From an archaeon (GTDB taxonomy: Archaea > Nanobdellota > Nanobdellia > Woesearchaeales > GW2011-AR9): DNA of 64,000 bases. This document shows, one piece after another, positions 3,611 through 63,707 of the stretch. Numbering within the stretch: the first letter of the stretch is position 1; each line of letters opens with the position of its first letter. The notes beneath the pieces were generated by a model. The model had not been told where the DNA came from and did not search any database. It was given only the letters and a program-made list of their open reading frames with translations. The stretch is from positions 682 through 64,681 of the forward strand of contig JABHRS010000036.1 of NCBI GenBank assembly GCA_018670085.1, in the 5' to 3' direction. Position numbers and translations under genes: made by a program.

Positions 3611-6106
3611 ATGGTAACTTCAAAAAAAGCTCAAATCACAATTTTCATTTTATTAGGGATGGTAATGCTCTCAGCTGCTGCTTTCCTTTTTTTTCTAGTC
3701 TCATCAACAACCGTTCAACAGTTAGAAACAGAGCAAGAAACTAGTATTGCAGGTATCTTTCAAAAGGAAGGACTTAGGCTTTTTGTTGAAGACTGTCTTA
3801 AAGATTCTTTAGAAGAAGGATTAGTCAAAGTTGGTGAAGGTGGTAGAATTTGGCATGACACAACTGAGCTTGAAGGAGCTTTGGCATTTTCAGAAGATTA
3901 TAATGGAATTAACTATGAAAACAATCTATACTATCTTGGATTAACCAACGATCTTAATTTTGAATTCCAAGAAGCTTACCCTTGTGAAGAGTATCTTGAC
4001 GAACCATATGTTTATTGTAAGTATATTCATGAAGATTCAGCAGACTTTGGGCATAAAGAAGGTTTAACAAAAACTAGTATAGCTTCAGATTTAGAAAAAT
4101 TTGTGAAAAACAACACCTTAGATTGTGTTCAAGAATTTTTATCCAGTGAACTTTCTTATAGTGGTGATTTAGGTGAGGGCGAACTTACTTTAAATTTAGA
4201 TATTCAAACAGATGGGATTAATATCGATGCCAAGTATCCGTTAGAACTTACAGTTGAAGGTGAAACTTATTTTCATCTAACCGAGTTTGATTATTTTTAC
4301 CCAAGTTCATTTCAAACATTTTTACTAAAAGCAGTTACAACACCTCTAACAAAAGAACAAGGAGATGTAAATTTTAATTGGACCGAAGAGGAGTTAATTG
4401 GAAATGGAAGAAATAGTTATTCATTATTATCTCCAACTTTAACAGTTACTGAAGTTGAAGAAACAACTGAGGGTTTAGGTCATAGAGTAATCAACTATCA
4501 GTTAGATGCTGGCCACATTTTAGAAAACGACCCATACAGCTTCTCATTTGCTATTCAAAATCGTCCACCTTCATTAGATTATATTCAAAGAGAGGCCTGT
4601 ACAGATTATGATTTTACAATTATTCCAGATAGTAATCGAGAGTTTGAGTCAATTAATATTTCAGCCATTGCTTATGATCCTGATCAAGACGAAATCACTT
4701 TTGAATATTATCCTGAAGATGCAATAGATGAATCAAGTTTTTTTGAGTGGATTCAAATAAATGATGATGTGGAATATGTTTCAAACATTTCAGCAAACAT
4801 CCCTGAGGAATTTGTTGATAATGATTTGTTTGGAATTTATGAGGTTCGAATAAACGCAACAGACACACATGGTTTATCTGATTGGCAAGACGTCAGGGTC
4901 TTAATTGACAGGCCATTAGAAATCAAGCTTGATATTGTAAACGCATATACTCAAATTAGTCCAAACCCTGTGAACTCCATTTATGCTTATCCAACAATCT
5001 CAACTGAAGATCCGTTTTACATCTCTGTTGTAACACCAGAAGATTCAGCAGCTGGTGATGTAACTCAAGAAGTCAAATTAATTTATACTGATCCAGAACA
5101 CATTGGTGATTTTGAGTATGTGCTTCCAGGTGGTTTAGATTTAGAAAACTGTTTTAGTTTTCCTTGGAAAGCAGAGTCTGGTGCTGCTTGTTCATTAGAT
5201 TCATATTCAGAAGCAGAATTATTAGCTTGGAAAGAATTAATTGAAACACCACTCCCATACTCGCATATGAGTTATTCTGGTGACGCTGATGCAGCCTTGG
5301 GTTTAATTGGAACTATGGAGGTTGTTGTTAGCGCAAACTATTGTTCAACATTTACTCAAAAAGATTCTGTAACTCAAAATGTGAATGTAGTTGAATGTAT
5401 CTCTTATGATAATCCAGAACACAAATGGGCTTACCCTTATCACAAATCAACTTATGACGAAGCAACTGGAGAGTACATTCACGAAGATGAAGATGTCAAT
5501 CCTTTTGAAGCAAGTCATAGTTGTTGTGAAAATTTTGTACATAAAGAAGCAGGGGAAATTTGTTATGAAAGTCCAGATGGTTGTTATGGTCAAATCCCTG
5601 GAAAAACTGAAGGTAAGAAAGGTTACGTTTTAGAAAATATTTTTGACAAATGTTCTGGAGAACGTGGAAACATTTGTGGAACTTTAGATGAGGATGGTCA
5701 AAGTTTAACTCAAGACCATCAGTTAGCAACATTGATTATGACTTGTGGGTTTAATGGCCAAAATGATTGTACCAATATCGAACCAGAGTGCCAAGGTGTA
5801 AATTCTTGGGATACAGTTGATGGGGAGATTTGGTGCCATGGAACAATGGGTTGTGAAAATGTTTGTCGAAAGTCAGAAAACAATTTTCCAATCTATATTG
5901 GTAATGATCCAAACTTTGTTGGAACTATTTCTAGTAATCCTAATGGGTTTGCAAGTATTGCATATATTAATGGTTTCCAAGAAGACAGTGACTTAATAGT
6001 TGAGTGTGGAACTTGTAGTGGAAGAGACAGTAATGAACCTTGTGACTTAAATTACAATGGGCAATTTGATGGTGTTTGTAGTAATGGTGCTTGCGTAAGC
6101 AACTAA
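3611..6106 (+). CDS. Large Cys-rich extracellular protein with a pilin-like (class III) signal peptide
   Basis: N-terminus MVTSKKAQITIFILLGMVMLSAAAFLFFLV has basic residues, Ala, Gln, then a roughly 22-aa hydrophobic stretch. The C-terminal third is Cys-dense (SHSCCENFVHKEAGEICY, CGTCSGRDSNEPC). It starts 59 nt after the upstream giant ORF on the same strand. Confidence 0.7.
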   Translation: MVTSKKAQITIFILLGMVMLSAAAFLFFLVSSTTVQQLETEQETSIAGIFQKEGLRLFVEDCLKDSLEEGLVKVGEGGRIWHDTTELEGALAFSEDYNGINYENNLYYLGLTNDLNFEFQEAYPCEEYLDEPYVYCKYIHEDSADFGHKEGLTKTSIASDLEKFVKNNTLDCVQEFLSSELSYSGDLGEGELTLNLDIQTDGINIDAKYPLELTVEGETYFHLTEFDYFYPSSFQTFLLKAVTTPLTKEQGDVNFNWTEEELIGNGRNSYSLLSPTLTVTEVEETTEGLGHRVINYQLDAGHILENDPYSFSFAIQNRPPSLDYIQREACTDYDFTIIPDSNREFESINISAIAYDPDQDEITFEYYPEDAIDESSFFEWIQINDDVEYVSNISANIPEEFVDNDLFGIYEVRINATDTHGLSDWQDVRVLIDRPLEIKLDIVNAYTQISPNPVNSIYAYPTISTEDPFYISVVTPEDSAAGDVTQEVKLIYTDPEHIGDFEYVLPGGLDLENCFSFPWKAESGAACSLDSYSEAELLAWKELIETPLPYSHMSYSGDADAALGLIGTMEVVVSANYCSTFTQKDSVTQNVNVVECISYDNPEHKWAYPYHKSTYDEATGEYIHEDEDVNPFEASHSCCENFVHKEAGEICYESPDGCYGQIPGKTEGKKGYVLENIFDKCSGERGNICGTLDEDGQSLTQDHQLATLIMTCGFNGQNDCTNIEPECQGVNSWDTVDGEIWCHGTMGCENVCRKSENNFPIYIGNDPNFVGTISSNPNGFASIAYINGFQEDSDLIVECGTCSGRDSNEPCDLNYNGQFDGVCSNGACVSN

Positions 6107-6112
6107 GAATTT

Positions 6113-7534
6113 CTAAAACCTATCAACACTGAAATAATTAAAATCTGGTCCGTCATTATAGGCATTATTAATTTCAATTGTCAACAGATCCAAATCTCCA
6201 GCATTAATTGGAAAATCTTCAAAACAATTATCTTGGCTAAATAATAATGTGCTTTCATTAATGTACACACTTATGTGTCCTTGGGAGTCCACAATTTCTA
6301 ATTGATAATTTTCTCCAGGATTTAATGTTCTTTCATCGCCTTCTACATATCTGTTGTTCACAAAATCATAACATTCAGCCCAAATTTTCCCTTCGTGGTT
6401 CCAAATTTGTACATAGCCATCGTAAAATTCAACTCCTCCACTTTCTGCGACTCTCGCTTCGGCCTTTATCTGTATATCATAGCCAGTCCCACTAACGATC
6501 TCACTTAGCATCCGAAAACTATGTTCGTGTTCACCAGTCACATCGATATATAACCCATGCGTTGCTTTGGCAGCTTCTTCGAATTTCATTTTCCCACCAG
6601 AAAGAGTAGGGTATCCACTTTCAAAATTCCAGTCAGAAGACAGATCTCCATCATTAAAATCATCACAAAAAAATTCATCTCCGGAACATTCAAAATCTGA
6701 TCCTCCACCAGACCCAGATCCTGAACTACTTCCTCCTTCATCAATTTCACCATCACAATCATCATCAATTTTATTGTCTGTATAAGTTTCAGTTGACGCA
6801 GGAGTATAACAATAATTTAGCACCATCCCTCCACTTGGAGATACCCATCCATCTAAGTTTGGAATGAATCCAAATCTTTGAAATGCAACACATTCTTCAG
6901 CTTCCTTTAGTTCCAAATCATTAACAAAGATCCCAAGAATAGTTTGAATTGTTTCTGATACTGTATTGATCGCTGCAACTGGTGAAGTTTTTGAAGCTCC
7001 CGCATAAAGCATTGATGGCAACTTTCTTTCGTCTTTGATATCTTCAAAAAGACTACAACCAAAATATCCCCATCCATTATTCTTCTCATGCAAGACCCAA
7101 TCAACAAACTGGCGCGAAGACTTCTGCAACGACTCATTTTTCTTACGAGTCACACTCCATCCTTGCCAAGTGTTTGAAGTTAAAGTTAAAGTATGCGAAG
7201 AGTTATGTTCATAAATTTGAAAGTCTGTTGTGTTGTAATCAGGATGCTCAGAGTAAAATGCTTCTGAACCATCTCCATCAAAGAATACTACAAGTGCGCC
7301 AGCAACGCCAGGCCCAGAACTAGTTTCACTTTTCACATAGATAGTTACATCTTCTCCACTTTGATCATCTACAAATTTGGCAATTCCAGAAGAATCAGTT
7401 AGTTTCTGTGTAACCTCAAAATGAGGCACAGATTTTATCTCCTCAATGGCAGGTTTCTGGCAACTAATGAATGGTAGTGTGAGTAATAGTGGTAACATTG
7501 ATTTATTTCTACTTACAATTTTTTCTAAACTCAT
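6113..7534 (-). CDS. Putative secreted lipoprotein with a MopE-like metal-binding motif and a concanavalin/LamG-like C-terminal domain
   Basis: Signal peptide ends in the lipobox-like LPFISC. DDDCDGEIDEGG motif, a Gly/Ser linker, then FCDDFNDGDLSSDWNF, typical of concanavalin-like lectin folds. Confidence 0.6.
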   Translation of the reverse strand: MSLEKIVSRNKSMLPLLLTLPFISCQKPAIEEIKSVPHFEVTQKLTDSSGIAKFVDDQSGEDVTIYVKSETSSGPGVAGALVVFFDGDGSEAFYSEHPDYNTTDFQIYEHNSSHTLTLTSNTWQGWSVTRKKNESLQKSSRQFVDWVLHEKNNGWGYFGCSLFEDIKDERKLPSMLYAGASKTSPVAAINTVSETIQTILGIFVNDLELKEAEECVAFQRFGFIPNLDGWVSPSGGMVLNYCYTPASTETYTDNKIDDDCDGEIDEGGSSSGSGSGGGSDFECSGDEFFCDDFNDGDLSSDWNFESGYPTLSGGKMKFEEAAKATHGLYIDVTGEHEHSFRMLSEIVSGTGYDIQIKAEARVAESGGVEFYDGYVQIWNHEGKIWAECYDFVNNRYVEGDERTLNPGENYQLEIVDSQGHISVYINESTLLFSQDNCFEDFPINAGDLDLLTIEINNAYNDGPDFNYFSVDRF

Positions 7535-7613
7535 CTTTATTCATAAAACACTTCATATTTAATTATCTTAGCATAGAAAAAGTTTAAGTGCCCATCTTTC
7601 TTTCTTAATCATC

Positions 7614-8690
7614 ATGAAGCTAATCACAAACATAACCTTGTATTTTTTTGTAACAATTCTTCTAGTTTCAACAGCATTAGCAACTTCTGGTTGCTTTTTA
7701 GAACCACAAAGCGATTATTATTGCCAAGAGATAGAACAAACTGAAGCAGACTTTGAATGTTCATTGTTCGATGACTGTTCTTTAGAATCAAGCTTCATTG
7801 AGGATGAAAGCTGCAAGTATTTCACTGAATGTGAACAAATTCTTTGTCAAAGTAATTGTCAAACAATGCCAGCTGGTCTTTGTGAAAGTGGGGAAGTTCC
7901 AGCTGGAGAAGAAGATTTGTGGTGCCAATCTGTTGGTTGTTGTCAATATTACATTGAAGGAGCTGAAGCTGGCTGTCAAATTGAAGAGAATAAATGGTAT
8001 TGTCATATTGCAGCGAGTAATGCTGGTGCAGAAACTTTAAACTGGGACCAAAGTCTCACTCAAACATCTTGCGAGGATACTTGTATTGCAGAAAGTTATC
8101 CTTATCAAACAGAATTATCTAATCCAGATATAGATTATTACTCCGATAACGTCATTGAAGAATCATCAATAGAATCAAAGCAAGAAGTGCTAGGGAGTGA
8201 AACTAACATCTCTAAGGATCAAGGTATTACTCAGAAAATAATTAAAATTTTGGGACCAATTTTTTTGTTATTTATTATCTCATTATTATCAATCTTCTTT
8301 TATGAACACCGTTTTACTATCATTAAGGATTACAAAATGATAGAAAAGAGAATCACCAAAAATAAAAGATCAAAAAAATCAAGTAAAAATTCCAATAAAC
8401 AAGAAGATCAAAACTCATTCAATTCAGATCACCAAATGCCAAAATCAAAATCACAACAGCTTTTGGATCAAGTTGAGCTTATTGCAAAGATCAAACCACA
8501 CCGCAGTCATCATGCACATGTCAGTAAAAGAATACATGCAAAATTGGAATTAACAGAATCCTTTTCAGGATATCAAGAGTCTAAGTTAGAAACAAAGTCT
8601 AGTATTAGTAAGTTAGCTCATCTCGCAAAGAAGTATCAACGTAAATTAAAACGAAAAGAGAAGTATCGGAAGAGATTAAATGACAAATAA
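7614..8690 (+). CDS. Cys-rich surface protein with a lipobox-like signal peptide, one TM anchor and a Lys/Ser-rich cytoplasmic tail
   Basis: MKLITNITLYFFVTILLVSTALATSGC, a Cys-rich ectodomain (SVGCCQYY), TM segment ILGPIFLLFIISLLSIFFY, and a basic tail. Confidence 0.6.
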   Translation: MKLITNITLYFFVTILLVSTALATSGCFLEPQSDYYCQEIEQTEADFECSLFDDCSLESSFIEDESCKYFTECEQILCQSNCQTMPAGLCESGEVPAGEEDLWCQSVGCCQYYIEGAEAGCQIEENKWYCHIAASNAGAETLNWDQSLTQTSCEDTCIAESYPYQTELSNPDIDYYSDNVIEESSIESKQEVLGSETNISKDQGITQKIIKILGPIFLLFIISLLSIFFYEHRFTIIKDYKMIEKRITKNKRSKKSSKNSNKQEDQNSFNSDHQMPKSKSQQLLDQVELIAKIKPHRSHHAHVSKRIHAKLELTESFSGYQESKLETKSSISKLAHLAKKYQRKLKRKEKYRKRLNDK

Positions 8691-9187: not shown

Positions 9188-10123
9188 TTATTTTTTAGAA
9201 ACTGTTTTCTTTTTCTTAGTAATTGCTGTTTTCTTTTTAGAACTAGCCTTTTTTACTGGCTTCTTTGCTTTTTTCACGACTGCTTTCTTTTTCTTAACTA
9301 CTTTTTTCTCGGTTGCTGGTTTTTTTACTTTTTTGACAGCAGTTTTTTTCTTTGAAGACACTGGTTTAGAGCTTTTCTTTTTAGCGGCTTTTTTCTTAGC
9401 CATCTTTTCCTTTTTCTTCAACTCAGCAGCTTTCTTTTTAGCAGCCTTTTTCTCAGCAGATTTTTTCTTTTTCTCATCTGCCTTTTTCTTTTTCAAGTCT
9501 TCTTTCGCTTTTTTCTCATCAGCAACTCTTTTTTTCTCATCAGCTTCTTCTTTTTTACGCTCTTCTTCAACTCGTTTTGCAGCAGCTCTCATTCGCTCTC
9601 GCTCAGATTTTTCCCAATCTAGAATTTCTTTACTTGTATTTTTAATCCTAGCTTGCAAACTTATGATTCTTTGAGTATTATCATCTTGTTGCATTAATTC
9701 CCCTGTTTCTGGACAGTGAAAGTCATATTCCATTGCATCATCAAAATTTAATCGAACTCCACCATCAGGTGAGACAAAAAACAATTCTTTCTGTTCTTTT
9801 TCTAAAATTCCCTGCATTCGAAGAAGTAATTCCTTTTTATCTTTAATATAATTGAACTTAACTTGGGCAACATCAATTGTCCAATAATAAACATACCAAC
9901 CCTTTTGTTTGTCCTTTTTACGGGTAAATGTCACTAAATTATTATTATAAAGTAAATATAACATTCGACGAACAACTTTGATATCACGCTTCATCTTTTT
10001 TGCGATATCAAATTCAGAGACGTTTTCCTTACCTTTTAGAACTTTAAGCAGATCTAGTCCATCATCATGTAGAATGCGAGTGATAACTTCTTCAACTTTT
10101 TTACTGGTAAATCTCATGGCCAC
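9188..10123 (-). CDS. tfe: Transcription factor E (TFIIE-alpha homologue) fused to a roughly 140-aa Lys/Ala-rich tail
   Basis: N-terminal winged-helix pattern (VSEFDIAKKMKRDIKVVRRMLYLLYNNNLV, WYVYYWTID) and a zinc-ribbon remnant (FHCPETGE). C-terminus is KKAAKKKAAELKKKEK...AKKPVKK repeats. Confidence 0.8.
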   Translation of the reverse strand: MAMRFTSKKVEEVITRILHDDGLDLLKVLKGKENVSEFDIAKKMKRDIKVVRRMLYLLYNNNLVTFTRKKDKQKGWYVYYWTIDVAQVKFNYIKDKKELLLRMQGILEKEQKELFFVSPDGGVRLNFDDAMEYDFHCPETGELMQQDDNTQRIISLQARIKNTSKEILDWEKSERERMRAAAKRVEEERKKEEADEKKRVADEKKAKEDLKKKKADEKKKKSAEKKAAKKKAAELKKKEKMAKKKAAKKKSSKPVSSKKKTAVKKVKKPATEKKVVKKKKAVVKKAKKPVKKASSKKKTAITKKKKTVSKK

Positions 10124-10232
10124 TTATATTCCCCAGTATCCACTTCAGGTGATGACACTTTTAAATCTTTCTATGGCAGGGTCTCTATGGGCAAAAAATC
10201 CCACTCTTAAGAAACAATTTGCATGAAAAACC

Positions 10233-10366
10233 TCACTACCTACTAACAATTCATTCTGAATTCTTATCAGTTGTGGAGCGCTTGGAGACCCACAACCCAC
10301 TAACAATTTCTTTGAAATTCTTACAGGTATTGGCTTCTACTGCGTAAGCCACTACCCACTGGTCAC
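10233..10366 (+). repeat. Tandem units of about 55 bp, each with conserved flanks around a hairpin of different sequence
   Basis: Unit A is GAATTCTTATCAG plus stem GTTGTGG/CCACAAC (10258-10296). Unit B is GAAATTCTTACAG plus stem TGGCTT/AAGCCA plus GCCACTACCCACTGGTCAC (10314-10366). A CACTACCYACT block flanks each unit. A third copy lies at 53359-53408 on the minus strand. Confidence 0.7.
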
Positions 10367-10378
10367 CCACAGAAACAG

Positions 10379-10386
10379 TTTAAATA
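10379..10386 (+). promoter_or_regulatory. TATA box of hjc
   Basis: tttaaata lies 31 nt before the ATG at 10410. The same spacing of about 30 nt is seen at several other genes here. Confidence 0.45.
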
Positions 10387-10409
10387 CGATTTTAAATATA
10401 TATCTGTAT

Positions 10410-10928
10410 ATGGCAAAACCGAAGAAGTGGATGAATCGTAAGGCTAAAGGAACTAATGCTGAGCGTGAGTTGATTCATATTTTCCACAAATTCGCTTGGA
10501 GTGCAGTTAGAATCGCGGGATCAGGGTCTACTAGGTATCCAGCACCTGACGTATTAGCTGGCAATGGATTCCGTAGAATTGCAATTGAAGCTAAGTTAAT
10601 TGCAGCCACTCGTAAATATTTCTCTTATCAAGATGTTGAACAGTTACAGGCATTTTCCAAAACATTTGGTTGTGAGAGTTGGCTTGCTGTCAAATTCCCA
10701 AATAAAGAGTGGGCATTTTTTAATCCAGAAGATTTGATAGAAACTAAAACTGCGTTTGTAGCAACTGTTGATTTAGCGGACAGGTGCGGCCTATCAATCG
10801 AAGAGCTTTTAGAAGTTGTATCGTTGGGTCAAGACACTGTAAATCAAGAAACAATCGAAGAATCAAATCCATTGGATCAATTTGATGGATTGGAATCAGA
10901 TGAGAATTTTATTATATCTTCAGAATAA
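10410..10928 (+). CDS. hjc: Holliday junction resolvase Hjc with an acidic C-terminal extension
   Basis: KGTNAERELIHIF, RIAGSG, PDVLAGNG and IAIEAKL match the Hjc E...D...EXK nuclease core. Confidence 0.85.
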   Translation: MAKPKKWMNRKAKGTNAERELIHIFHKFAWSAVRIAGSGSTRYPAPDVLAGNGFRRIAIEAKLIAATRKYFSYQDVEQLQAFSKTFGCESWLAVKFPNKEWAFFNPEDLIETKTAFVATVDLADRCGLSIEELLEVVSLGQDTVNQETIEESNPLDQFDGLESDENFIISSE

Positions 10929-10944
10929 ATAACATCTAATAAAT

Positions 10945-11847
10945 CTAAACTTCAAAACTCATAAAGTCTTCTGCAAACTTTACTTTTTTATGATACTTCT
11001 TCGCTTCCTTCAAAAGTACAGAAACATCACGATACCTAATACTTGGGTGTGTGAGATAAACTTGTAAGGCCCCTGCTTTAGTAGCTAGCTCCGCACTTTC
11101 TTTTGCGGTCATGTGATCATACTTAACGGCCAATTTTTTATCCTCAAATAGAAATGTGGATTCAATTATGAGTGCATCGCAATTCTTAGCTAAACTGCGA
11201 GCACCGGCGCAAGGACGAGTGTCAGGAACGTATGCAAATTTACGTCCAACAACTAAGGAAGTCACATTTTTGCTTTTCACAAGTTTGCCACTGGCGCGCA
11301 CATTTTTTCCAGCTTGAATTTCAGCTAGCATCGGACCTTGCACTAATCCAGCTTTTTTCGCTTTTTTCATATCAATTTTCAGTCGATCTTTTTCTTTAAG
11401 TGAAAATCCAACACAATCAACGCTGTGCGAAAGTGGCTCAGCTGTTACAATAAAATCCTTTCCTTCAAGAATCACGCCACCAGCACTGACTTCGTGCAAC
11501 TTGTGAGGTAACCCATTCATACTAGGAAACGCTTTTTTGAAATGATTAAATTTTTTACGACTTCCCTTTGGCCCATAAATATCTAGCGTATGTCCAACTT
11601 GGTCTGCTGCCATCGTAGAGATTAAACCCGCAAGTCCAAGTGCGTGGTCCCCATGCCAGTGGCTAATGAAGATTCGTGTAATTTTGCTTCTCTTCAATCC
11701 AGCAATTTTCATTTGCCGTTGAATCCCTTCACCGCAATCAAACAACAAGTTCTCACTACCAAACGAGACATGAATCCCAGAGTGATTCCTTTCTTTAGTT
11801 GGTTGCATGCAAGTGGTTCCAAGGAATGTAACTTTCATTGTTGACAT
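10945..11847 (-). CDS. rnz: Ribonuclease Z (tRNA 3' endonuclease, metallo-beta-lactamase fold)
   Basis: MKVTFLGT start, the HWHGDH motif, and about 300 aa in length. Confidence 0.85.
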   Translation of the reverse strand: MSTMKVTFLGTTCMQPTKERNHSGIHVSFGSENLLFDCGEGIQRQMKIAGLKRSKITRIFISHWHGDHALGLAGLISTMAADQVGHTLDIYGPKGSRKKFNHFKKAFPSMNGLPHKLHEVSAGGVILEGKDFIVTAEPLSHSVDCVGFSLKEKDRLKIDMKKAKKAGLVQGPMLAEIQAGKNVRASGKLVKSKNVTSLVVGRKFAYVPDTRPCAGARSLAKNCDALIIESTFLFEDKKLAVKYDHMTAKESAELATKAGALQVYLTHPSIRYRDVSVLLKEAKKYHKKVKFAEDFMSFEV

Positions 11848-14179: not shown

Positions 14180-15064
14180 CTATTTTTTCAGCTTCTTAAG
14201 CATTTTCAAACTACCTTCATCAAACTTCGAAAAAGCAAACCACTTTTCCCCCAGATCTTTCAAAGATGCACCTATATGATAAACTTCTTTACCATCAATT
14301 ATCAAAAAACGGTCATGGGAATCCTTAAACTCCTTAACGATAATAGAAGAATACTGAGAATTATACTTATCTAAATCAAGTTCCAGTTGTTTAGAAATAT
14401 TGTTTGTATAAATCACAACTTCTACATTACTTTTTCTTTTTGAAAACAATATCAACACAGTATCATCAATGTAATTATCAATCAAAACTATTGACTTTTT
14501 GGCACTACGAATCAAATCAGAAATAAACTTGTAAGCATCAAAGACTTGTCCGTTGTAGAAAATTCCTTGTTTCTTAATCAGACTTGTATCTTCAATTGCT
14601 TCAAACACTTGCTCTAATCTCTGGTCTGTTATAATTTGATACTCAAGTTGTTTTTGTTCCATTGCACCTAGTCTCCCAAACAACTCTGTATTTTTAGAAA
14701 TGAACTTCCTCATTGCAACAAAAGTCCGTATGATATGAATATTCACTTCAACGGCTATCTTACTCTTTAATATTCCAGATAGTGCTGCAATGCCATGTTC
14801 TGTGAAAACATGAGGTAAACTCGGAGAATACTTTAGTTTTAGGAGGTGGTCACAATTTGTGACCAGTTCAATTTTCTCAAGCTCAGTTATGCGGAACATG
14901 AAATCTGAAGGAAAACGTTTGCTATTTCTCTTTACAGCCTGATTCAATGCTTTCGTAGGAACTTGATACAAAATAGCTAAATCTCTATCAAGCATTACTT
15001 GATAACCCCTTACACTGTGGATTTTGTTATTAATATTATTTGGAACTATTTTTTTATTTAGCAC
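14180..15064 (-). CDS. ORF6N (KilA-N-related) DNA-binding domain protein with a degenerate PLD-like C-terminal domain
   Basis: IHSVRGYQVMLDRDLAILYQVPTKALNQAVKRNSKRFPSDFMF is the ORF6N signature. The C-terminus has HDRFLIID...YHIGASLKDLG. Confidence 0.7.
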   Translation of the reverse strand: MLNKKIVPNNINNKIHSVRGYQVMLDRDLAILYQVPTKALNQAVKRNSKRFPSDFMFRITELEKIELVTNCDHLLKLKYSPSLPHVFTEHGIAALSGILKSKIAVEVNIHIIRTFVAMRKFISKNTELFGRLGAMEQKQLEYQIITDQRLEQVFEAIEDTSLIKKQGIFYNGQVFDAYKFISDLIRSAKKSIVLIDNYIDDTVLILFSKRKSNVEVVIYTNNISKQLELDLDKYNSQYSSIIVKEFKDSHDRFLIIDGKEVYHIGASLKDLGEKWFAFSKFDEGSLKMLKKLKK

Positions 15065-50974: not shown

Positions 50975-53317
50975 TTACTTTTTCTTCTCATACTTAGCAG
51001 CAAGCACTTCACGAATCCGACTAACAATTGTTTTTCCAACTCCTGAAACTTCTAATAACTCTTTCTCACTTGCCTGTACAATTTTCTCAACTGATCCAAA
51101 ATGCAGTAGTAATTTCTGTGCAACCGATGGGCCAACAGATGGAAAACTATTAACAATAAATTCCTGCTGATTTCGAACACCTTGTGGTTTACTTGAATGT
51201 AAACTAGCAACCCTCCCACTTGATTGTTGTTCTCTTTTTGCCATCACAGCTAAGAGTGCAGCAGTATCGTTGGCATCTTTGGTATAAAGCACTGGTACGC
51301 CAAATCCAAGTACAATTGATGCCAGTGCCCCGCGAATTGCGTTTGGGTGTACTCGCCGAACAGAATATATATCTTCTTCACCTTCAACAATTAATACTGA
51401 TTTTTCAAATTTAGAACGCAGCTCCTTAACTTGTCCAAGTAATCGGCCATCAAGCATACTTGAAACAAAGTCATCTACTTTTTTAAGTTCGACAGCCACT
51501 TTTCCAGCCACCACATAATCTGCAGATTCCAATTGTGCAAGTCTAACTTTTATTCCCATCTCAATCAATTCTTTCACAATTGTATTTCCTTTCTCACGAT
51601 GGTCACAAACTATCGTAACTACTTCCTTTGCTGGATCAACAAACTGTGATAATTTAGAATTATGGCGTACATCGCTAATTTGTTTTCCAGCTACAACTCG
51701 CCTGCTGCTGCTTTTAATCTCATTTAACGCATTTCCTGTGGAACTACTAGTATTTGACCCCTTCATTTCCGATGGAGATTTAACCTTTTTATCCTCTAAA
51801 GACACAACTAATTTTCCTTTCATTCGCTTAAGTTCGTCCAAATGTCTGTACATTCGTTTTTCTTTGTGAAATGCAGCCCACTTGTATGCTTCATCGCGAG
51901 TTCCTTTGGTAACAAGAACTGTCACTTCTCCTTTTTCACTACGGCCAGTTCTACCTCTCCTTTGAATTGATGCAATTGCACTTGGAGTTGGTTCATAAAA
52001 TATTACTTTATTCACTCTTGGGATATCTAGTCCTTCTTCTGCAACTGAAGTTGCAACTAGCACATTGAACTCGCCATTTCGAAATCTGTCCAGTACTTGT
52101 TTCTGGATTTTTTGGGTCATCCCGATCCCTTTTTTCTTTGTTTGTCCAACAAAAATTTGGGCGTTGACTTTTTGTTTTTCAAGTGCCTGTACAATTTGTG
52201 CTGCAGTATCTCGAAATTGACTGAACACCAATATCTTACGATTAGAATCTAATGAAATCTCCTTTTGAACCATTTCAATTAATCTTGGTAGTTTTGGATG
52301 TACAATCCCTTCTTCAACTAATTGTTCAGAGCTGTATAATGCTGATTTAAAATTTTCATCTCGAACTAAGTTTTTTACTGCTTTTACTTTTGATTTTCCA
52401 GAACTACTTTGCAACTCTTGTAAATAATCATTACAAACCTTCACTCCTTGGCATTCTAATAATCCTACTGCATGTTCTATTTTCATAGCTTCTGCAAGTA
52501 GGGATAGGGATTTCATAACTTCAAAATTTCCTCTGTCCTTCCCAAGTTCTCTTTGTAACTCACGTTGCAATTTCAGTAATTGTGACTTGGTCAAGTTTTC
52601 TTTATTCAAGTACCCAAGTAAACAAATAGCTTTTAGTTTTGATTTGTAACAATTTTTCATCATTGAATGCAGTGCCTTAAACTGCTCTGGAAATTCTAAA
52701 TAGATCCATTCATGGTCAGTATCTTGGATGTAGTGTTTTACATCGTGATCATTATCAGTCCTAACTTCTATCTCTTCAATGGATAAATTCTGGCAGACTT
52801 CTTGGATTTTCTCCATTTCTGAGCCAGGTGATGCTGTTAACGCTAAAACGTGTGAGCTATTTGCAAGTTTTGCATATTGTTTTGCCAGCCAGACATAGCT
52901 GTATTCTCCTGTTGCGTGGTGTGCTTCATCAAAAACAACCAAGCTCACATCTTTAAAGCAGATTCTTTCATTGATTAAATCATTCTCTAACCCTTGCGGC
53001 GTACTTATCACAATCTTTGCATTTTTCCACATCTCTTCACGTTTACTTGGTTTAACTGATCCTGTAAACAATACTATTTTCTCGTCTTTAATATCTAAAT
53101 GTGTTTGAAAACTGCGTTGATGTTGCTCGCAAAGAGGTTTAGTTGGTGCTAGGAGCAGTATTTTTGATTCTGGGTGTTTATTTAGCCTAACTACACTCAT
53201 CATTATTGCAAGAGCCGTTTTTCCAAGTCCGGTTGGCAATACTACTAGGGTATTTTTTGTAGCGCAAGTTGCCAGAATTGTTTGTTGGTAAATCCTTGGT
53301 GTTAGATTTTTTAGCAT
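50975..53317 (-). CDS. hef: Hef: DEAH-type helicase fused to an ERCC4/XPF nuclease and an HhH2 domain
   Basis: LPTGLGKT (motif I), DEAHH (motif II), LTASP, QRRGRTGR (motif VI). ERCC4 block CDHRE...ADYVV...VELKKVDD. C-terminal HhH (FGSVEKIVQASEKELLEVSGVGKTI). Confidence 0.85.
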   Translation of the reverse strand: MLKNLTPRIYQQTILATCATKNTLVVLPTGLGKTALAIMMSVVRLNKHPESKILLLAPTKPLCEQHQRSFQTHLDIKDEKIVLFTGSVKPSKREEMWKNAKIVISTPQGLENDLINERICFKDVSLVVFDEAHHATGEYSYVWLAKQYAKLANSSHVLALTASPGSEMEKIQEVCQNLSIEEIEVRTDNDHDVKHYIQDTDHEWIYLEFPEQFKALHSMMKNCYKSKLKAICLLGYLNKENLTKSQLLKLQRELQRELGKDRGNFEVMKSLSLLAEAMKIEHAVGLLECQGVKVCNDYLQELQSSSGKSKVKAVKNLVRDENFKSALYSSEQLVEEGIVHPKLPRLIEMVQKEISLDSNRKILVFSQFRDTAAQIVQALEKQKVNAQIFVGQTKKKGIGMTQKIQKQVLDRFRNGEFNVLVATSVAEEGLDIPRVNKVIFYEPTPSAIASIQRRGRTGRSEKGEVTVLVTKGTRDEAYKWAAFHKEKRMYRHLDELKRMKGKLVVSLEDKKVKSPSEMKGSNTSSSTGNALNEIKSSSRRVVAGKQISDVRHNSKLSQFVDPAKEVVTIVCDHREKGNTIVKELIEMGIKVRLAQLESADYVVAGKVAVELKKVDDFVSSMLDGRLLGQVKELRSKFEKSVLIVEGEEDIYSVRRVHPNAIRGALASIVLGFGVPVLYTKDANDTAALLAVMAKREQQSSGRVASLHSSKPQGVRNQQEFIVNSFPSVGPSVAQKLLLHFGSVEKIVQASEKELLEVSGVGKTIVSRIREVLAAKYEKKK

Positions 53318-53333: not shown

Positions 53334-53346
53334 CTTTAATTAAAAA
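53334..53346 (-). promoter_or_regulatory. TATA-like box of hef
   Basis: On the minus strand, TTTTTAATTAAAG starts 29 nt upstream of the ATG at 53317. Confidence 0.4.
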
Positions 53347-53358
53347 CCTTTAGTGCGT

Positions 53359-53408
53359 GTGACCAGTGGGTAGTGGCCTATGTAATAGGCCAATACTGAT
53401 AAGAATTC
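53359..53408 (-). repeat. Third copy of the hairpin element seen upstream of hjc
   Basis: The minus strand reads GAATTCTTATCAGTATTGGCCTATtacATAGGCCACTACCCACTGGTCAC. The last 19 nt are identical to 10348-10366, and the stem sequence differs from the hjc copies. Confidence 0.75.
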
Positions 53409-53657
53409 CTCTTTCATAATTAATCTGTTCTACTCAACCAGACCTAATCTAACATACACTTTCTATCGAATGAAAGGTTAAAAACCTCACATCTTGGACA
53501 TCTCTATAAAAATAATCTGTTTGGTTTTTTGACATCTCAGTACTAGTTTGTCACTACTATAAACTAACAATAGTTCGAAAGATTTAAATAAGGGTGTCTA
53601 CTTGAGCGTAGTAATCTAGTAAAATCGCTAGATATTATTATCAAAAATAAACTATAC

Positions 53658-55436: not shown

Positions 55437-56984
55437 ATGAAACGAACTACACTAACACTTGCAACTTTAATGGGACTTGGAACTATTCAACCTGCTTATG
55501 CTGGATTAAATGAATCTGATGTGCATGACATTGTTCCTGCTCAAATTCCTGCTGATGTTTTAACTCTAGAGTGTGAAACTTGGATGGATAATAATACAAC
55601 TTACATTGATAATACTTTTTGTAACGAAGACGATGTAGCAATAATTGCAAAATCAGAATGTGGAACTGAAAGTATGGACTGGATTTTAAATAAAATTCCA
55701 GGAGATAACAATCTTCGTAGTGATTACAACAATTGGGCTTGTCAAACAATTGATTTAGCAACCTTTGGTAGTGCAGAAGATACCTTAACTAGTGGCCTTG
55801 CAAGAAAATTTCTTTGTAATGGCGATGAGACTAATGTTTGTGTATACACAGCACCAGTTGCAGAAGTAAATCACGCACCTGTTGTTACATTAAACGCAGG
55901 CGGACGAACTGTAGAACAAGCACCAGGAAATGTAGATTATGTTTTTAGCGTTATCGATGAAGACGCAGGCGACACTTGGGAAGTAGCTGCAACTATAACT
56001 AAAGATGGATCAACTGATGAATTAACCAAAATTGTAGCTAATGCTGATGGAGTAATTGTTTCTCTTGATTCAAACTTAGCTGCTGGTGAATATCAAATTA
56101 CATTAAAAGCAACTGATAACCATGGATTAGCTTCAGAACCAAACACTTCATCTTACAAAATCACCAAAACAGCACCTGCGGCAGCACCTGCACCTCCTGC
56201 AGTAGCAGCTAAGGTTCAAACAGCTGATTTTAGATTAGGTTACACTGCAATGTTTCAACCTGGATTCGATCAACGAAGTCACGGTTTACAAGCAAGCGCT
56301 GCATTTCCTCTAGCTGAAACTAGTTTTAAATTAGTGCCAGGATTAAGATGGGGAAGATTAAGTGGCGGAGATACTCGTGACGCTTACACTGAAGATATGG
56401 ATCCAACTCATAGAGAAGGTAGCGAATACATCGAAAGTATGCCTGATATGAATAATCCAAATGAAACTCTTGATATTGAAATGCGTTACGTTGAAACTTC
56501 AGAAGGATCAACTACTCACGATTTCAAAGCGCCAACTAGAGGGCATGATTTACAGGCACAATTATATTTAGAATTTCCTTCAGCAAGCAAAACATTTGCA
56601 CACGGAAGTCTAGCAGCTGCTATTCAAGCAGGATTTTCTGTTGGTAAAACTTGGGGCCAAGATTCTAATGGGACTTGGAACTCAACACGTGATTACACAA
56701 CTGAAGCTTCTCTTTGGACTGTTGATAATGCTGGAAACGAAGAATTATTCCAGGACTTAGATCCTGTTTTTGATACTCAAAGCAGAAGTGGATCAACAAG
56801 CAAAGACATCAAAGGTTACGGTTATGCTGGAATTGGTGCAAGAGTAATGCTTGATGCTACATTGAACAATGGACTTGGAGTTTATGCAAACGGTGACTTT
56901 GGACTCAGAATGGGCGGCGACGGAGTATCTTTAGATGCAGGAGCTGGCGCAGGACTTGTTTACAAAAGACCACTGAAGGAATAA
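55437..56984 (+). CDS. Secreted protein: Sec signal peptide, Ig/cadherin-like domain, Pro/Ala linker, and a beta-barrel-like C-terminal half
   Basis: SD AAGGAGAT precedes the ATG. Signal peptide is MKRTTLTLATLMGLGTIQPAYA; the Ig-like domain has VIDEDAGDTWEV and ATDNHGL; the linker is APAAAPAPPAVAA. Nine to ten amphipathic strands follow (FRLGYTAMF, LQASAAF, YAGIGARVML, LGVYANGDFGLRM, AGAGAGLVYK). Confidence 0.65.
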   Translation: MKRTTLTLATLMGLGTIQPAYAGLNESDVHDIVPAQIPADVLTLECETWMDNNTTYIDNTFCNEDDVAIIAKSECGTESMDWILNKIPGDNNLRSDYNNWACQTIDLATFGSAEDTLTSGLARKFLCNGDETNVCVYTAPVAEVNHAPVVTLNAGGRTVEQAPGNVDYVFSVIDEDAGDTWEVAATITKDGSTDELTKIVANADGVIVSLDSNLAAGEYQITLKATDNHGLASEPNTSSYKITKTAPAAAPAPPAVAAKVQTADFRLGYTAMFQPGFDQRSHGLQASAAFPLAETSFKLVPGLRWGRLSGGDTRDAYTEDMDPTHREGSEYIESMPDMNNPNETLDIEMRYVETSEGSTTHDFKAPTRGHDLQAQLYLEFPSASKTFAHGSLAAAIQAGFSVGKTWGQDSNGTWNSTRDYTTEASLWTVDNAGNEELFQDLDPVFDTQSRSGSTSKDIKGYGYAGIGARVMLDATLNNGLGVYANGDFGLRMGGDGVSLDAGAGAGLVYKRPLKE

Positions 56985-57045
56985 TTACAATAATAAAATA
57001 ATAATACAAAATAACGAAAAAAAACTCCTTGGAGGATATAATACT

Positions 57046-59724
57046 ATGAAAACAAAATCATTTATGGCATTCGCACTTGTTATGTTAATTGCAGTAGCTA
57101 TGCTACCAGCAGCTTTCGCATCAAGCGCAGTAACTGCATATTGGACATCTGGTTCCAGTGCAGAGAGCATCGACATTCTTCAAGGAGAAGAAGTAACTTA
57201 CTCATTTTTAGTTTACGGATATGATGGTTACAGTATTTACGCAGAACTTCAAGATAGTACTGGTGCAAGAGTAGGCGCAGTTATTATTGATGAAGAAAGT
57301 GAATCTATTGAACATGTGGTGATCTCAGCTTCTGGCTACGGTTACACATTGTACGAAAAATCATTCAACTCATTCAAAACAAATTCCTTAGATGGGGATT
57401 ACACTGTTTATGTTTTAACTGAAGACACTGATGGAACATCTGATGAATATAGTATTTCATTAACAGTTGACGCTGATTCAGATGACGACGGTATTGGAGA
57501 CGATACTGACAACTGTCCTGATGTAGCAAACGAAGATCAAGATGATACTGATGGCGATGGTGTAGGAGACGCATGCGATACTCCAACTATTCAAACAGAT
57601 ATTGCTGATCAAACTGCAACTGAAGGTGAACTTTTATCTTTTGATTTTGATGCAGTTGATCCAAACGACGAAGGAGTAATTATTGAAGCTGAGATCTCAT
57701 CTGGTGCTGGAGAAAATCTTGTATATATTAGTGGTGACTCAGTTTACATTACTGATAACGGCGATGGAACTGCAACTGCTTATTTGCAACCAATGTTCTC
57801 TTTTGTTGAACATACTGCAACTTCAGGCTCTTTTGATATGATTATTACAATCGATGACGGTGACGAAGAAGCATCTTCAAATGCTTTCACAGTTACTGTA
57901 GTTGACGAAAACCAAGTTCCAAGTATTACCTCAACTCCAGCTGCAACTGCAACTGAAGATTTTGAGTACCAATACCAAATTGAAGTTGAAGATTTGGACG
58001 CAGAAGATGCAGGACTTGGCTTTGAATATAGAATGACTGGTGGTTCATCTGACATGTCTTTTGATGAAAGTTCTGGTCTATTAACTTGGACTCCTGACTT
58101 CGATGAAGAAGGAAACGTTTACACTGTAACTCTTTCAACTGAAGATGTTATGGGTGGAGTTGATACCCAAACTTACACTTTAACTGTGGATAACTCAAAC
58201 CGAGCTCCAGTATTAACTTTAGTAGATGATACTGTAGCAGCAGGAGAAACATCCTCAACTGAAATTTCAGCAACCGATGCTGATGGTGATTCATTAACCA
58301 TCTCTTCACCTGATTTGCCAACTGGCGCATTCATAAGAGACAATGGTGACGGAACTGCTGATTTTGCATGGGTAACAACTACTGATGATATTACAACTGT
58401 CATCACTGTTGAAGTTACTGATGGAATTGAGACTACAACTGGAACTTTCACTGTAACAATTGAAGGAACCACTGCAAACTCAGCTCCAGTATTAACTCTT
58501 CCAGCTGATCTAACCATCACTGAAGGAGCTGAAGTAACTAGTGTTGAATCAACTTTTTCAGCAACCGATGCTGAAGGTGATGATTTAACTTACACTGAAC
58601 CATCCGACTTACCTGATGGAGCAGCTTTCACTGATAATGGTGACGGAACTGCTTTCGTTGAGTGGACAACTGACAGCAGCGATGCTGGTGTTTACACAAT
58701 TACTATCGAAGTAACTGATGGAACTGATTTCACTTCAGAAGAATGGACTATTGTTGTTGATGATGATGGTACTGGTGGAAACAATGATCCAGTATTAACA
58801 ATGCCTGCTGATTTAAGAATCACAGCTGGCGAATCAATCGATGCAACTGAATCAACTTTCACTGCAACTGATGCTGACGCAACTGATGTATTAACTTACT
58901 CTGAAACAATTGCCCTACCTGATGGAGCAAGCTTCACCGATAACGGTGACGGAACTGCATTCATTGAGTGGACAACTAGTGAAGACGATATTGGAACATA
59001 TGCTATCGTTGTTGATTTAACTGATGGAACAACTACTGTTTCAGGTACTTGGACTATTACTGTTGAAGAAGATTCCACTAGTGGAACTGGCAACAACGCA
59101 GCAACTCTTTCAGCTGATCCAGAATCAGTTGATGCAGTTGAAGGTGATGATATTCAAATTACTGTTACAGGTTACGACCTTGATGGTGATGATTTAGAAT
59201 TTAGCGTTTCAGATTTACCAGAAGCTGCTTCCTTTAGAATCAGAAGTGACGGTGTTACCGGAACTTTTTGGTGGGAAACAACTACTGGCGATGCTGGGGA
59301 ATATGAAGTAACTATCAGTGTCTTTGACGGTACTGTAACTACTGACTTAGTAATTTCAATTAATATTACTGTTGATGAATCAGCAAGTGATGATGTAATT
59401 ACTGTAACCAGCGAAGGTCTTGCTTTAAAGAGCGTTCACGTTTCAGACGAGACCGTTCGAGCAGGTGACTATATTTACGTATCTGTAGGTATGGAAAACC
59501 AAGCTCAAGAAGACCTTGAAGATTTGAAAGTAGCTGTAGTCTTTTACGATTTCGCAACTAAAGTAACAAGTAGTGAATTCGATTTAGACGAAGGCGATGA
59601 AATGGATAAATCTCTTTCAGTTTCTATACCAAGAAACGTAAGGGAAGGACTCTATTACATGAAAGTCACTGTAAGTAACGACGAAATAGATGCCGTTGCT
59701 TATAGAACCGTTCGTGTTATTTAA
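57046..59724 (+). CDS. Modular adhesin-like surface protein: thrombospondin type 3 repeat, tandem He_PIG/cadherin-like modules, and a CARDB-like C-terminal beta-sandwich
   Basis: SD GGAGGAT and signal peptide ...LPAAFA. TSP3 repeat is DSDDDGIGDDTDNCPDVANEDQDDTDGDGVGDACD. There are at least 4 modules of about 95-100 aa with ATDA.GD.LTY....LPDGA.FTDNGDGTA..EWTT. Confidence 0.75.
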   Translation: MKTKSFMAFALVMLIAVAMLPAAFASSAVTAYWTSGSSAESIDILQGEEVTYSFLVYGYDGYSIYAELQDSTGARVGAVIIDEESESIEHVVISASGYGYTLYEKSFNSFKTNSLDGDYTVYVLTEDTDGTSDEYSISLTVDADSDDDGIGDDTDNCPDVANEDQDDTDGDGVGDACDTPTIQTDIADQTATEGELLSFDFDAVDPNDEGVIIEAEISSGAGENLVYISGDSVYITDNGDGTATAYLQPMFSFVEHTATSGSFDMIITIDDGDEEASSNAFTVTVVDENQVPSITSTPAATATEDFEYQYQIEVEDLDAEDAGLGFEYRMTGGSSDMSFDESSGLLTWTPDFDEEGNVYTVTLSTEDVMGGVDTQTYTLTVDNSNRAPVLTLVDDTVAAGETSSTEISATDADGDSLTISSPDLPTGAFIRDNGDGTADFAWVTTTDDITTVITVEVTDGIETTTGTFTVTIEGTTANSAPVLTLPADLTITEGAEVTSVESTFSATDAEGDDLTYTEPSDLPDGAAFTDNGDGTAFVEWTTDSSDAGVYTITIEVTDGTDFTSEEWTIVVDDDGTGGNNDPVLTMPADLRITAGESIDATESTFTATDADATDVLTYSETIALPDGASFTDNGDGTAFIEWTTSEDDIGTYAIVVDLTDGTTTVSGTWTITVEEDSTSGTGNNAATLSADPESVDAVEGDDIQITVTGYDLDGDDLEFSVSDLPEAASFRIRSDGVTGTFWWETTTGDAGEYEVTISVFDGTVTTDLVISINITVDESASDDVITVTSEGLALKSVHVSDETVRAGDYIYVSVGMENQAQEDLEDLKVAVVFYDFATKVTSSEFDLDEGDEMDKSLSVSIPRNVREGLYYMKVTVSNDEIDAVAYRTVRVI

Positions 59725-63582: not shown

Positions 63583-63707
63583 TTTATTAAGAATTAAATA
63601 TGTTCAAGAAGGAGCAACAGTGAGTTGTTGGTACATTTATTTTAATTTATTAAGAATTAAATATGTTCAAGAAGGAGCAACAGTGAGTTGTTGGTACATT
63701 TATTTTA
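63571..63707 (+). repeat. 63-bp tandem duplication (2 copies plus an 11-nt partial) spanning the reductase stop codon
   Basis: Unit CATTTATTTTAATTTATTAAGAATTAAATATGTTCAAGAAGGAGCAACAGTGAGTTGTTGGTA occurs at 63571-63633 and 63634-63696. The partial copy is at 63697-63707. Confidence 0.9.

Follow-up and report, generated by a model that had tools for sequence, protein, structure and literature searches.

The hairpin-forming sequence located just upstream of hef is probably the dyad-symmetric upstream extension of a promoter control element that acts at the DNA level on a repair regulon. The conserved part of this element is a box of short tandem heptads. Because this box is shared by hef, hjc, uvrB and the gene of a MutS-like ATPase, it most likely marks, as far as can be judged from the sequences, a regulon of DNA-repair and recombination genes in a small marine Woesearchaeota-like DPANN clade. 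The box, its fixed position, the set of genes that carry it and the covariation of the hairpin stems are direct observations, made on a contiguous stretch of 64,000 nucleotides (the window) and on related loci, which are designated by L numbers.

The hef promoter region

The 780-aa gene downstream of the element is identified as Hef by the presence of the Pfam DEAD, Helicase_C, ERCC4 and HhH domains. Inspection of the sequence upstream of this gene confirms the hairpin element that the first-pass annotation had reported: the minus strand from 53408 to 53359 reads GAATTCTTATCAG-ta-TGGCCTAT-tac-ATAGGCCA-CTACCCACTGGTCAC. The order given there for the region, i.e. the element, 12 nt, a T/A box (53346-53334) and the hef ATG (53317), is also correct, with the exception of the 29 nt attributed to the last interval. 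The real gap is 16 nt (53333-53318), and 29 nt is the value obtained when one counts to the ATG starting with the T/A box itself, at its first base. The T/A box behaves as the hef TATA box, in agreement with the position just 5' of it that had been assigned to the element. The coordinates of the features at the hef locus, and those of the companion array found 5' of hjc, are collected in Table 1. The hef region is identical in six further metagenome contigs of the same species, and the GC content is about 35%.

The hairpin of the hef copy, named H2, is formed by a perfect 8-bp stem, TGGCCTAT (53392-53385) and ATAGGCCA (53381-53374), closed by the 3-nt loop TAC and extended by three more pairs (GTA/TAC) past a T-C mismatch. 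Its 3' arm overlaps the first heptad of the box, which itself extends from about -61 to -42 relative to the hef ATG. The 5' flank GAATTCTTATCAG corresponds to the 3' arm of a second hairpin, H1, in the other copies, where it aligns with TTCTYATMRG in 10 other units, and it makes up the middle of a copy of the box that is degenerate and inverted. In the window hef copy, the pairing partner of this flank, present in the other copies, has decayed; H2 is intact, and both H1 and the distal box are degraded.

The first-pass annotation had further stated that the stem differs from those of the hjc copy and that the flanks are kept, which is supported; the 18-mer and 13-mer flanks are exact at both loci. 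The 18-mer occurs twice in the window (5' of hjc at 10349-10366 and 5' of hef) for 0.02 occurrences expected, and the exact 13-mer 5' flank is restricted to the hef and hjc loci of the window. When two mismatches are allowed, the 13-mer is not enriched in the window (5 found for 3.7 expected).

Table 1. Features of the hef-proximal element and of the companion array at hjc, in window coordinates.
Feature	Position	Strand	Remarks
5' conserved flank GAATTCTTATCAG	53396..53408	-	exact second copy at 10258-10270
Hairpin H2 (hef copy)	53370..53396	-	stem covariation at the same position over 11 units
3' flank 18-mer CCACTACCCACTGGTCAC	53376-53359	-	window hef copy
Repair box GGCCACTACCCACTGGTCAC	53359..53378	-	heptads CCACTAC / CCACTGG / TCAC
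Box-TATA spacer acgcactaaagg	53347..53358	-	12 nt; 3' end purine-rich, BRE-like
hef TATA box TTTTTAATTAAAG	53334..53346	-	16 nt (53333-53318) before the ATG, without Shine-Dalgarno sequence
hef, 780 aa, helicase-nuclease	50975..53317	-	ATG at 53317; Pfam DEAD, Helicase_C, ERCC4, HhH
Companion array 5' of hjc	10233..10367	+	two tandem units; includes a distal box-like sequence
H1a	10244-10252 / 10258-10266	+	hjc array
H2a	TTGTGG 10271-10276 / CCACAA 10290-10295	+	hjc array
Middle box	10290-10306	+	hjc array
H1b	10301-10310 / 10314-10323	+	hjc array
H2b	TGGCTT 10331-10336 / AAGCCA 10346-10351	+	hjc array
Promoter-proximal box	10349-10366	+	hjc array; 34.0 bits
hjc TATA box GTTTAAATACG	10376..10386	+	hjc promoter
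hjc coding sequence	10410-10928	+	Pfam match to the Hjc family

A box locked in position upstream of predicted leaderless core promoters

When the promoters are aligned on their start codons, the end of the box CCAC(W)A(S)CCACTGGTCA is seen to fall 43-45 nt ahead of the start codon in 14 promoters, which belong to five gene families and nine species (hef in seven species, hjc in four, the MutS-like gene, uvrB and one gene coding for a 197-aa protein); this set is small and its orthologous copies are not independent. A T/A box is found at -33 to -20 in 14/14 promoters, the spacer between the two boxes measures 9-12 nt at every locus, and neither the orientation of the box nor its register with respect to a TATA box changes from copy to copy. 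The sequence intervening between the box, the TATA box and the ATG differs from one gene to another and is conserved among the orthologues of each. The fixed register is accordingly one that is maintained, not merely inherited from a recent copy. In the case of hef, the context of the start codon is conserved in the orthologues and the TATA spacing is the same in six of them.

In archaea, the TATA box is centred about 26 nt upstream of the transcription start, and in leaderless genes it lies about 20-33 nt before the ATG with no Shine-Dalgarno sequence. Promoters of the common class in the window are devoid of a Shine-Dalgarno sequence and have their TATA-like box some 20-24 nt in front of the ATG, and a second class of genes displays GGAG or GGTG 6-9 nt before the ATG instead of the TATA-like box. 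Compared with the other genes of the window, hef and hjc are members of the TATA/leaderless class, and the element therefore lies upstream of the core promoter of a predicted leaderless mRNA. Their promoters have the features predicted for an archaeal leaderless core promoter (BRE/TATA).

The specificity of the box was assessed with a weight matrix made solely from the boxes of other species and then run on the 64-kb window. The promoter-proximal boxes of hjc and hef score 34.0 and 33.2 bits, respectively, and the distal hjc box 15.5 bits, while all other sites of the window remain at or below 10.6 bits and shuffled sequence reaches 4-17 bits under the same matrix. A heptad periodicity can be seen, for instance, in CCACTAG/CCACTGG/TCAGCTT and CCACAAG/TCACAGG/TCAACTG, and the CCACTGG core itself varies between copies (CCACAAG, CCACTAG, CCACAGG). 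The conserved, position-locked part of the element is its 3' flank and the box persists without any hairpin, contrary to the first-pass annotation, in which the hairpin was the core.

Genes preceded by the box

For comparison, hef loci whose protein is 67-73% identical to that of the window (L007, L009, L011, L052 and L053) or 58% identical (L060) were fetched, together with the hjc loci L057-L059 and the loci obtained by pattern scans of genomes and metagenomes (L012/L038, L013/L047 and L045). The identity of the Hef orthologues to the window protein thus ranges from 58 to 73%, and only six Hef clusters, defined at 90% identity, exceed 60%, so that the clade available for comparison is small. 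The Hef and Hjc homologues are labelled Woesearchaeota or Nanoarchaeota in public records. The window species is represented in NCBI by GCA_018656565.1 and, relative to its relatives, carries hjc in inverted orientation.

The search for extra copies of the box in about 150 kb (the window and about 86 kb of flanking DNA of the relatives) yielded none besides that of uvrB. The latter is shortened and keeps the same 10-nt spacing to its TATA box, and its gene is identified by the Pfam UvrB_inter, UvrB and UVR domains. The MutS-like gene that carries the box codes for a MutS2/KamC-like ATPase with an N-terminal helix-hairpin-helix, an assignment based on weak matches below the family cut-offs. At L052, the array is duplicated, two genes are inserted upstream of hef, and the gene of the 197-aa protein, which was inserted there together with the duplicated array, carries the box. 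At L012, the box points to a 14-codon ORF starting with TTG, followed by the gene of a 107-aa protein, and a gene for a DnaQ-type exonuclease is divergent; at L013, it precedes an RHH-ParE pair across 48 nt and a second TATA box.

Two observations count against the reading of these genes as a repair regulon: the box copies of L012 and L013 have no repair gene directly after them, and the HerA-like helicase gene of the window has no box. The 20 further genes that were annotated, taken from the larger of the 49 window ORFs of at least 90 codons, are mostly housekeeping genes or have no Pfam match. The window holds no homologue of the MutS-like gene or of the DnaQ-type exonuclease, and no informative Pfam, NCBIfam or PDB match was obtained for the box-driven 197-aa and 107-aa proteins.

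In the genome collection, the scan with the type-A hairpin pattern (see below) returned a single MAG contig, L012. A relaxed pattern gave 39 matches in metagenomes, five of which contain the element (L013, L022, L038, L045 and L047). L030, which displays CTACCYA heptads, looks cyanobacterial (GCGATCGC repeats) and was discarded as unrelated. The scan of viral contigs with the box gave chance matches only, none of them in a TATA context.

Covarying hairpins as inverted partial copies of the box

Eleven units were aligned, and the hairpins H1 and H2 were defined by RNAalifold and by explicit counting of the pairs. H1 has the structure T(G/A)ACAAYY(C) / (G)RRTTCT(C/T)A, in which one mismatch, C-C, never varies, and its loop-proximal pairs alternate between AATT/AATT, AACC/GGTT, AATC/GATT and AATTTC/GAAATT. 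The common form of H2, type A, is TTGTGG-AG-YAY-loop-RTR-A(C/G)-CCACAA, the inner three pairs of which alternate between TAC/GTA, CAT/ATG and CAC/GTG. The type B stems are unrelated: TGGCCTAT/ATAGGCCA for the window hef, TGGCTT/AAGCCA for hjc and TGGTT/AACCA for L053.

The covariation of the stems claimed by the first-pass annotation is clearly recovered. Indeed, 94% of the cells of the alignment are paired, compared with 35-39% once the partners have been shifted by 1-3 columns; double Watson-Crick changes account for 24 cells, and a single G-U is present among 186 cells; double changes affect 8 of the 17 pairs, and 0/500 shuffles reach the observed covariation score. Taken alone, a perfect 8-bp hairpin is not unusual, 14 being found in the window for about 22 in dinucleotide shuffles. 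In an anchored test, the first CCA of the box had to pair with an upstream TGG and the null was given by shuffled upstream sequence. The window hef copy, with 11 pairs (P=0.0005), is the strongest of all, and an anchored hairpin is detected at P<=0.05 in 15/21 boxes from nine species.

When the arrays are read as DNA, what separates two direct boxes is a further copy of the box, degenerate and in inverted orientation; for instance, GGTTCTCATAAGATTGTGG gives after reverse complementation CCACAATCTTATGAGAACC, to be compared with the box sequence CCACAAGCCACTGACAACC. This inverted copy pairs at either end with its direct neighbours, which produces H1 and H2, and the hairpins are clade-specific inverted partial copies of the box. 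Their number varies from 0 to 3 units between species, and the orthologous hef-proximal site is of type A or type B depending on the species. The hjc gene of L058 and L059 is preceded by a 60-nt intergenic region in which no more than about 20 nt separate the box from the upstream gene's stop codon, with little or no hairpin, and hef of L060 has the box and the TATA box and no hairpin. By these comparisons, the hairpin is an optional accessory to a position-locked promoter box.

Both arms, the C-C mismatch, the AG/AC loop and the linker YAGGA are conserved between species whose Hef proteins are 67-73% identical, while the neighbouring intergenic DNA is unalignable. Two features of the stems count against the regulator-site model favoured below. 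The spacing between the TGG and CCA cores varies (5, 13 or 15 bp), and one dimeric site would not usually show such a variation. The uncontacted inner positions of the stem remain complementary (TAC/GTA, CAT/ATG, CAC/GTG), a feature for which ordinary contacts of a dimer do not account.

Discussion

The conservation of the hairpins can be interpreted in several ways. An unlikely one is that H1, H2 and their linkers are transcribed into a structured RNA acting as a small RNA or as a cis-acting transcript, whose source would be either a short divergent transcript initiated on the opposite strand from the near-symmetric TATA box or a conserved T/A-rich block lying further upstream in the hef direction. 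The combination of two hairpins with compensatory changes and conserved unpaired linkers is the classic signature of such an RNA; however, the covariation signature is equally expected of a DNA palindrome and is therefore not diagnostic, and G-U pairs are almost absent among the varying pairs. Several A-C mismatches turn into G-U when the strand opposite to hef is considered, namely in the GGA/CCC extension and the AG/AC internal loop of the type-A H2 and in TTGTAGC/GCCACAA of L011, and the consensus fold is more stable on that strand (-11.0 vs -5.7 kcal/mol), but the single-sequence z-scores are modest and similar on both strands, and the folding energies do not separate them. Transcription starting on this opposite strand some 24-26 nt away from the TATA box would begin within the box, which would account for the fixed spacing as well. 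Against this, the box is kept without hairpin in L058 and L059, where the opposite-strand RNA would be merely antisense to the 3' end of a coding gene. Furthermore, the element sits upstream of the TATA box of a predicted leaderless gene and the number of units shifts from 0 to 3 between close species. Conserved T/A-rich blocks are present upstream in the hef intergenic region, and neither a consistent promoter nor a T-run terminator for a separate RNA was found across the loci on either strand. The Rfam 15 search of the whole window at the gathering thresholds returned two tRNAs only, and at E<=10 the hef and hjc regions gave chance matches only (10-25 bits for thresholds of 50-60). On reading the sequence, a C/D-box or H/ACA RNA was rejected: RUGAUGA is absent, the hjc copy does not conserve CUGA, and neither a K-turn nor a pseudouridylation pocket is present.

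It is similarly improbable that the hairpins are functionless, being either by-products of the turnover of repeats around a real promoter box or remnants of a small mobile repeat of modular build. Inverted and tandem partial duplications of the box would in this case be kept symmetrical by intrastrand template switching, thereby mimicking compensatory evolution. Template switching in replication is able to create and maintain perfect stems in single events (PMC8794818), and the double changes without one-sided intermediates fit this mechanism, which makes it a serious neutral explanation for the covariation. The rapid change in the number and type of the units (0 to 3 units, type A or B at orthologous sites), the duplicated array of L052 with its two inserted genes, the inversion of hjc in the window species relative to its relatives and the fact that the arms are recognisable as copies of the box all point in the same direction. 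On the other hand, the arms, their non-canonical features and the linker YAGGA are conserved in the middle of unalignable intergenic DNA, and the copies are few and each of them is tied to a promoter, unlike MITE or REP-type repeats. A dispersed intergenic repeat (MITE, REP/BIME or BOX-like), expected in many copies per genome whatever the gene or the promoter position, was itself discarded, the element being found at two loci in 64 kb and, uvrB apart, at no further one in about 86 kb of flanking DNA of the relatives, with a fixed orientation and register to the TATA box.

We find it quite doubtful that the palindromes are a structure-sensing DNA switch, an extension of the idea of the first-pass annotation, in which they would extrude into hairpins or cruciforms under negative supercoiling or replication stress and would be recognised through their structure itself, possibly by junction or fork proteins such as Hjc or Hef, thereby coupling topology or damage to the transcription of the repair genes. 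The strict Watson-Crick complementarity and the short loops are in line with such a switch, the hef copy (8+3 bp, 3-nt loop) being favourable to extrusion, but stems of 6-11 bp in AT-rich DNA are short for a stable extrusion and mismatches that are conserved (C-C in H1, AG/AC in H2) make the structures weaker. Also in line with the switch, covariation is seen in stems whose sequences are entirely different from copy to copy, the products of the genes controlled are enzymes acting on branched DNA, and, the 3' arm overlapping the first heptad, extrusion would alter what a factor binding the duplex sees; yet several promoters of the same genes have no palindrome at all (L058, L059 and L060). The composite of this switch with the regulon, in which palindromes laid over the regulator site of a repair-regulon array would extrude or melt under torsional or replication stress and be read by their structure, conceivably by Hjc and Hef, in a feedback loop linking branched DNA to the production of its resolving enzymes, is very unlikely.

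The model that we favour is that of a control element of a repair regulon operating at the DNA level. Its core, the box, repeats a heptad in tandem two to three times (CCAC(W)A(S)-CCACTGG-TCA) and lies 9-12 bp 5' of the TATA box. We infer that a putative sequence-specific DNA-binding regulator occupies this box, binding its heptads at about -61 to -44, and that, from its place just upstream of BRE/TATA, it would act on the recruitment of TBP and TFB, perhaps in response to DNA damage. The position of the box suggests an activation, and a repression would also be possible. H1 and H2 stem from the makeup of the region 5' of the box, where a degenerate copy of the box lies inverted, often together with a further direct copy, giving an array in which the box is successively forward, reverse and forward. 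In H2, the partner of the inverted copy is the first heptad of the box nearest to the promoter. The preservation of this pairing by compensatory Watson-Crick changes suggests that the DNA dyad matters. The dyad may supply extra sites for the regulator, or may form a hairpin or a cruciform hiding the first heptad; as judged from the promoters that have none, the hairpins would be dispensable for the basic function of the promoter. The TFE-alpha-like gene adjoining hjc was considered as the regulator and set aside, as its product looks like a general factor with a lysine-rich tail. This gene is unrelated to the TrmB-type gene present near L012.

By analogy, the closest functional counterpart in archaea would be the ANTTTC/Orc1-2 element of the Sulfolobales. 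In this lineage, the DNA-damage element 5'-ANTTTC-3' is located at -23 to -55 from the ATG and is bound by the activator Orc1-2, and the tests were made on the promoters of upsA, upsE, tfb3 and cedA1 (PMC6061795). The two systems have in common a short promoter-proximal motif shared by the genes of an archaeal repair or damage regulon, which in our case is a proposed one, and they differ in sequence, in lineage (DPANN here) and in gene set (repair nucleases and ATPases here). The box is not the Sulfolobales motif, its consensus CCACWASCCACTGGTCA containing no ANTTTC; AATTTC is confined to a single H1 stem upstream of hjc, and the other copies do not conserve it. The resemblance to the SOS box and LexA is one of logic only, i.e. 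a single operator at the promoters of uvrB and of recombination and repair genes. SOS boxes are palindromic, overlap the core promoter and repress, whereas the box described here is made of asymmetric tandem heptads at a fixed distance upstream of the BRE/TATA of an archaeal promoter.

As for the position of the box, Ptr2 of Methanocaldococcus and TFB-RF1 of Pyrococcus are regulators whose sites lie directly upstream of BRE/TATA and aid the recruitment of TBP and TFB. The box belongs to the same position class, but the sequences of these sites are unrelated to it, and we know of no covarying hairpin array or association with repair genes in their case.

Two further systems resemble the box in sequence. 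The operators of the RHH protein omega, a bacterial plasmid protein, are made of 5'-WATCACW-3' heptads in direct and inverted orientation, and their arrays of 7-10 repeats overlap the promoter regions of the target genes (PMC9499535). Both cases involve contiguous 7-bp repeats with a CAC core, in both orientations and at promoters, and an RHH gene follows one copy of the box (L013), which we regard as a lead only; in contrast to the omega arrays, no more than 2-3 heptads follow one another without a gap here, and 3-15 bp lie between the inverted copies. The ORB and mini-ORB sites of Orc1/Cdc6 are characterised by invariant TTCC and GAA motifs on either side of their centre (PMC1904270), and they cluster at an origin, beside cdc6. 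The CCAGTGG core of the Pyrococcus mini-ORB TTCCAGTGGAACT is the reverse complement of the box centre CCACTGG, and the damage regulator of the Sulfolobales is an Orc1 paralogue. However, there is here neither an origin context nor an adjacent cdc6 gene, and, because the reverse complement of the box, TGACCAGTGGG, lacks TTCC and GAA, its identity with ORB or mini-ORB was rejected.

In conclusion, the element has the appearance of a control site for an archaeal repair regulon that had so far gone undescribed, and our literature searches for a DPANN repair regulon or for a motif upstream of hef or hjc returned nothing relevant. To our knowledge, the Sulfolobales, with Orc1-2 and ANTTTC, are the only archaea in which the transcription of DNA-repair genes is known to be coordinated in a well-defined way, and we know of no cis-regulatory code for the repair genes of DPANN, whose members are uncultivated and have small genomes. 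Covarying DNA palindromes are unusual for an archaeal promoter and offer a clean test between DNA hairpins taking part in the control of archaeal transcription and template switching faking compensatory evolution. Furthermore, the position-locked box found on hef, hjc, uvrB and the MutS-like gene is a testable handle with which the regulon could be listed in metagenome-assembled genomes and its regulator fished for. With its help, the 197-aa and 107-aa proteins could also be given roles related to repair, and perhaps the conserved 580-aa neighbour of hef as well.

Box copies and hairpin arrays in related genomes

In one relative (L052), the box and the hairpin array lying 5' of hef are present in duplicate, and two genes, encoding a protein of 197 aa of unknown function and one of 68 aa, are inserted between the two copies. 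Each copy stands at the standard distance from a leaderless start, whose expression it would drive. A metagenome contig recovered by the pattern scan (L013) also carries two boxes: a full one with a hairpin, which precedes a gene pair encoding an RHH (CopG-like) protein and a ParE-like toxin, and a shortened one devoid of the first heptad, which precedes uvrB. The full box and the base that follows it are identical to the hjc copy of the window, so that the contig may come from the same species or from a very close one.

Features of the window and of the compared loci
Feature	Location	Remark
Conserved block	window 53540-53650	end of the hef/580-aa gene intergenic region nearest the 580-aa gene; kept in six species
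TTTTTATATTTTRAGTACATCTAATAGGTAG block	L007 2196-2230	hef locus of a relative
TTTTTATATTTTRAGTACATCTAATAGGTAG block	L009 2796-2830	hef locus of a relative
TTTTTATATTTTRAGTACATCTAATAGGTAG block	L011 1239-1272	hef locus of a relative
TTTTTATATTTTRAGTACATCTAATAGGTAG block	L053 1582-1616	hef locus of a relative
TTTTTATATTTTRAGTACATCTAATAGGTAG block, diverged version	window ~53500-53530	
Duplicated box and hairpin array	L052 1213-2366	
Two boxes	L013 1480-1660, 7060-7140	
hjc locus	window 9188-11847	compared with L057-L059
TFE-alpha-like gene	window 9188-10117 (-)	
Perfect hairpins	window 14847-14865, 3490-3514	within coding regions
Tandem repeat	window 63614-63695 (-)	near the window end
Large ORFs	window 157-8690, 53658-59724	
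Genes with Ig-like or cadherin-like domains	window 55437-59724	

Organization of the window

The orientation of hjc is inverted with respect to the loci of three relatives, in which lactamase_B, hjc and TFE follow one another on a single strand with a promoter region of 60-230 nt, whereas in the window a 292-nt region with two hairpin units separates hjc from the divergently oriented TFE gene. The hjc product has 172 aa versus 136-160 aa in these relatives. The TFE-alpha-like protein (~310 aa) is far above the typical archaeal length owing to a lysine-rich C-terminal tail of KKKAAE-type repeats.

Two further perfect hairpins, TGGTCACA-att-TGTGACCA, which includes the TGGTCAC of the box, and GCCACCAATA-ctgac-TATTGGTGGC, a 10-bp stem in the 1131-aa ORF close to its 3' end, are probably due to chance, given the shuffle expectation. 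A ~63-bp sequence (ACCAACAACTCACTGTTGC tccttcttgaacatatttaattcttaataaattaaaataaatg..) occurs as two tandem copies. Several large ORFs (1131, 831, 473, 358 and 580 aa) have no match in Pfam; the Ig-like or cadherin-like domains of neighbouring genes suggest surface proteins.

The intergenic region between hef and the 580-aa gene

Between the two promoters of this region lies a second conserved block, TTTTTATATTTTRAGTACATCTAATAGGTAG, which could be the promoter of a hef-ward transcript, the T-run of a terminator or an inverted box-like site.

The block nearest the 580-aa gene reads ..ACTACGC..AAGTAG..TTATTTAAATCTTT..ATTGTTAG..AGTAGTGACA. Towards this gene, TGTCACTAC-N6-CTAACAAT, whose sequence resembles a variant box, is followed after 10 nt by the TATA box ATTTAAATAAG and then by a conserved leader of ~45 nt with small hairpins (CTAC..GTAG and ATCTAG..CTAGAT). 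In view of this arrangement, the 580-aa neighbour of hef, whose function is unknown, might belong to the proposed hef/hjc box regulon.
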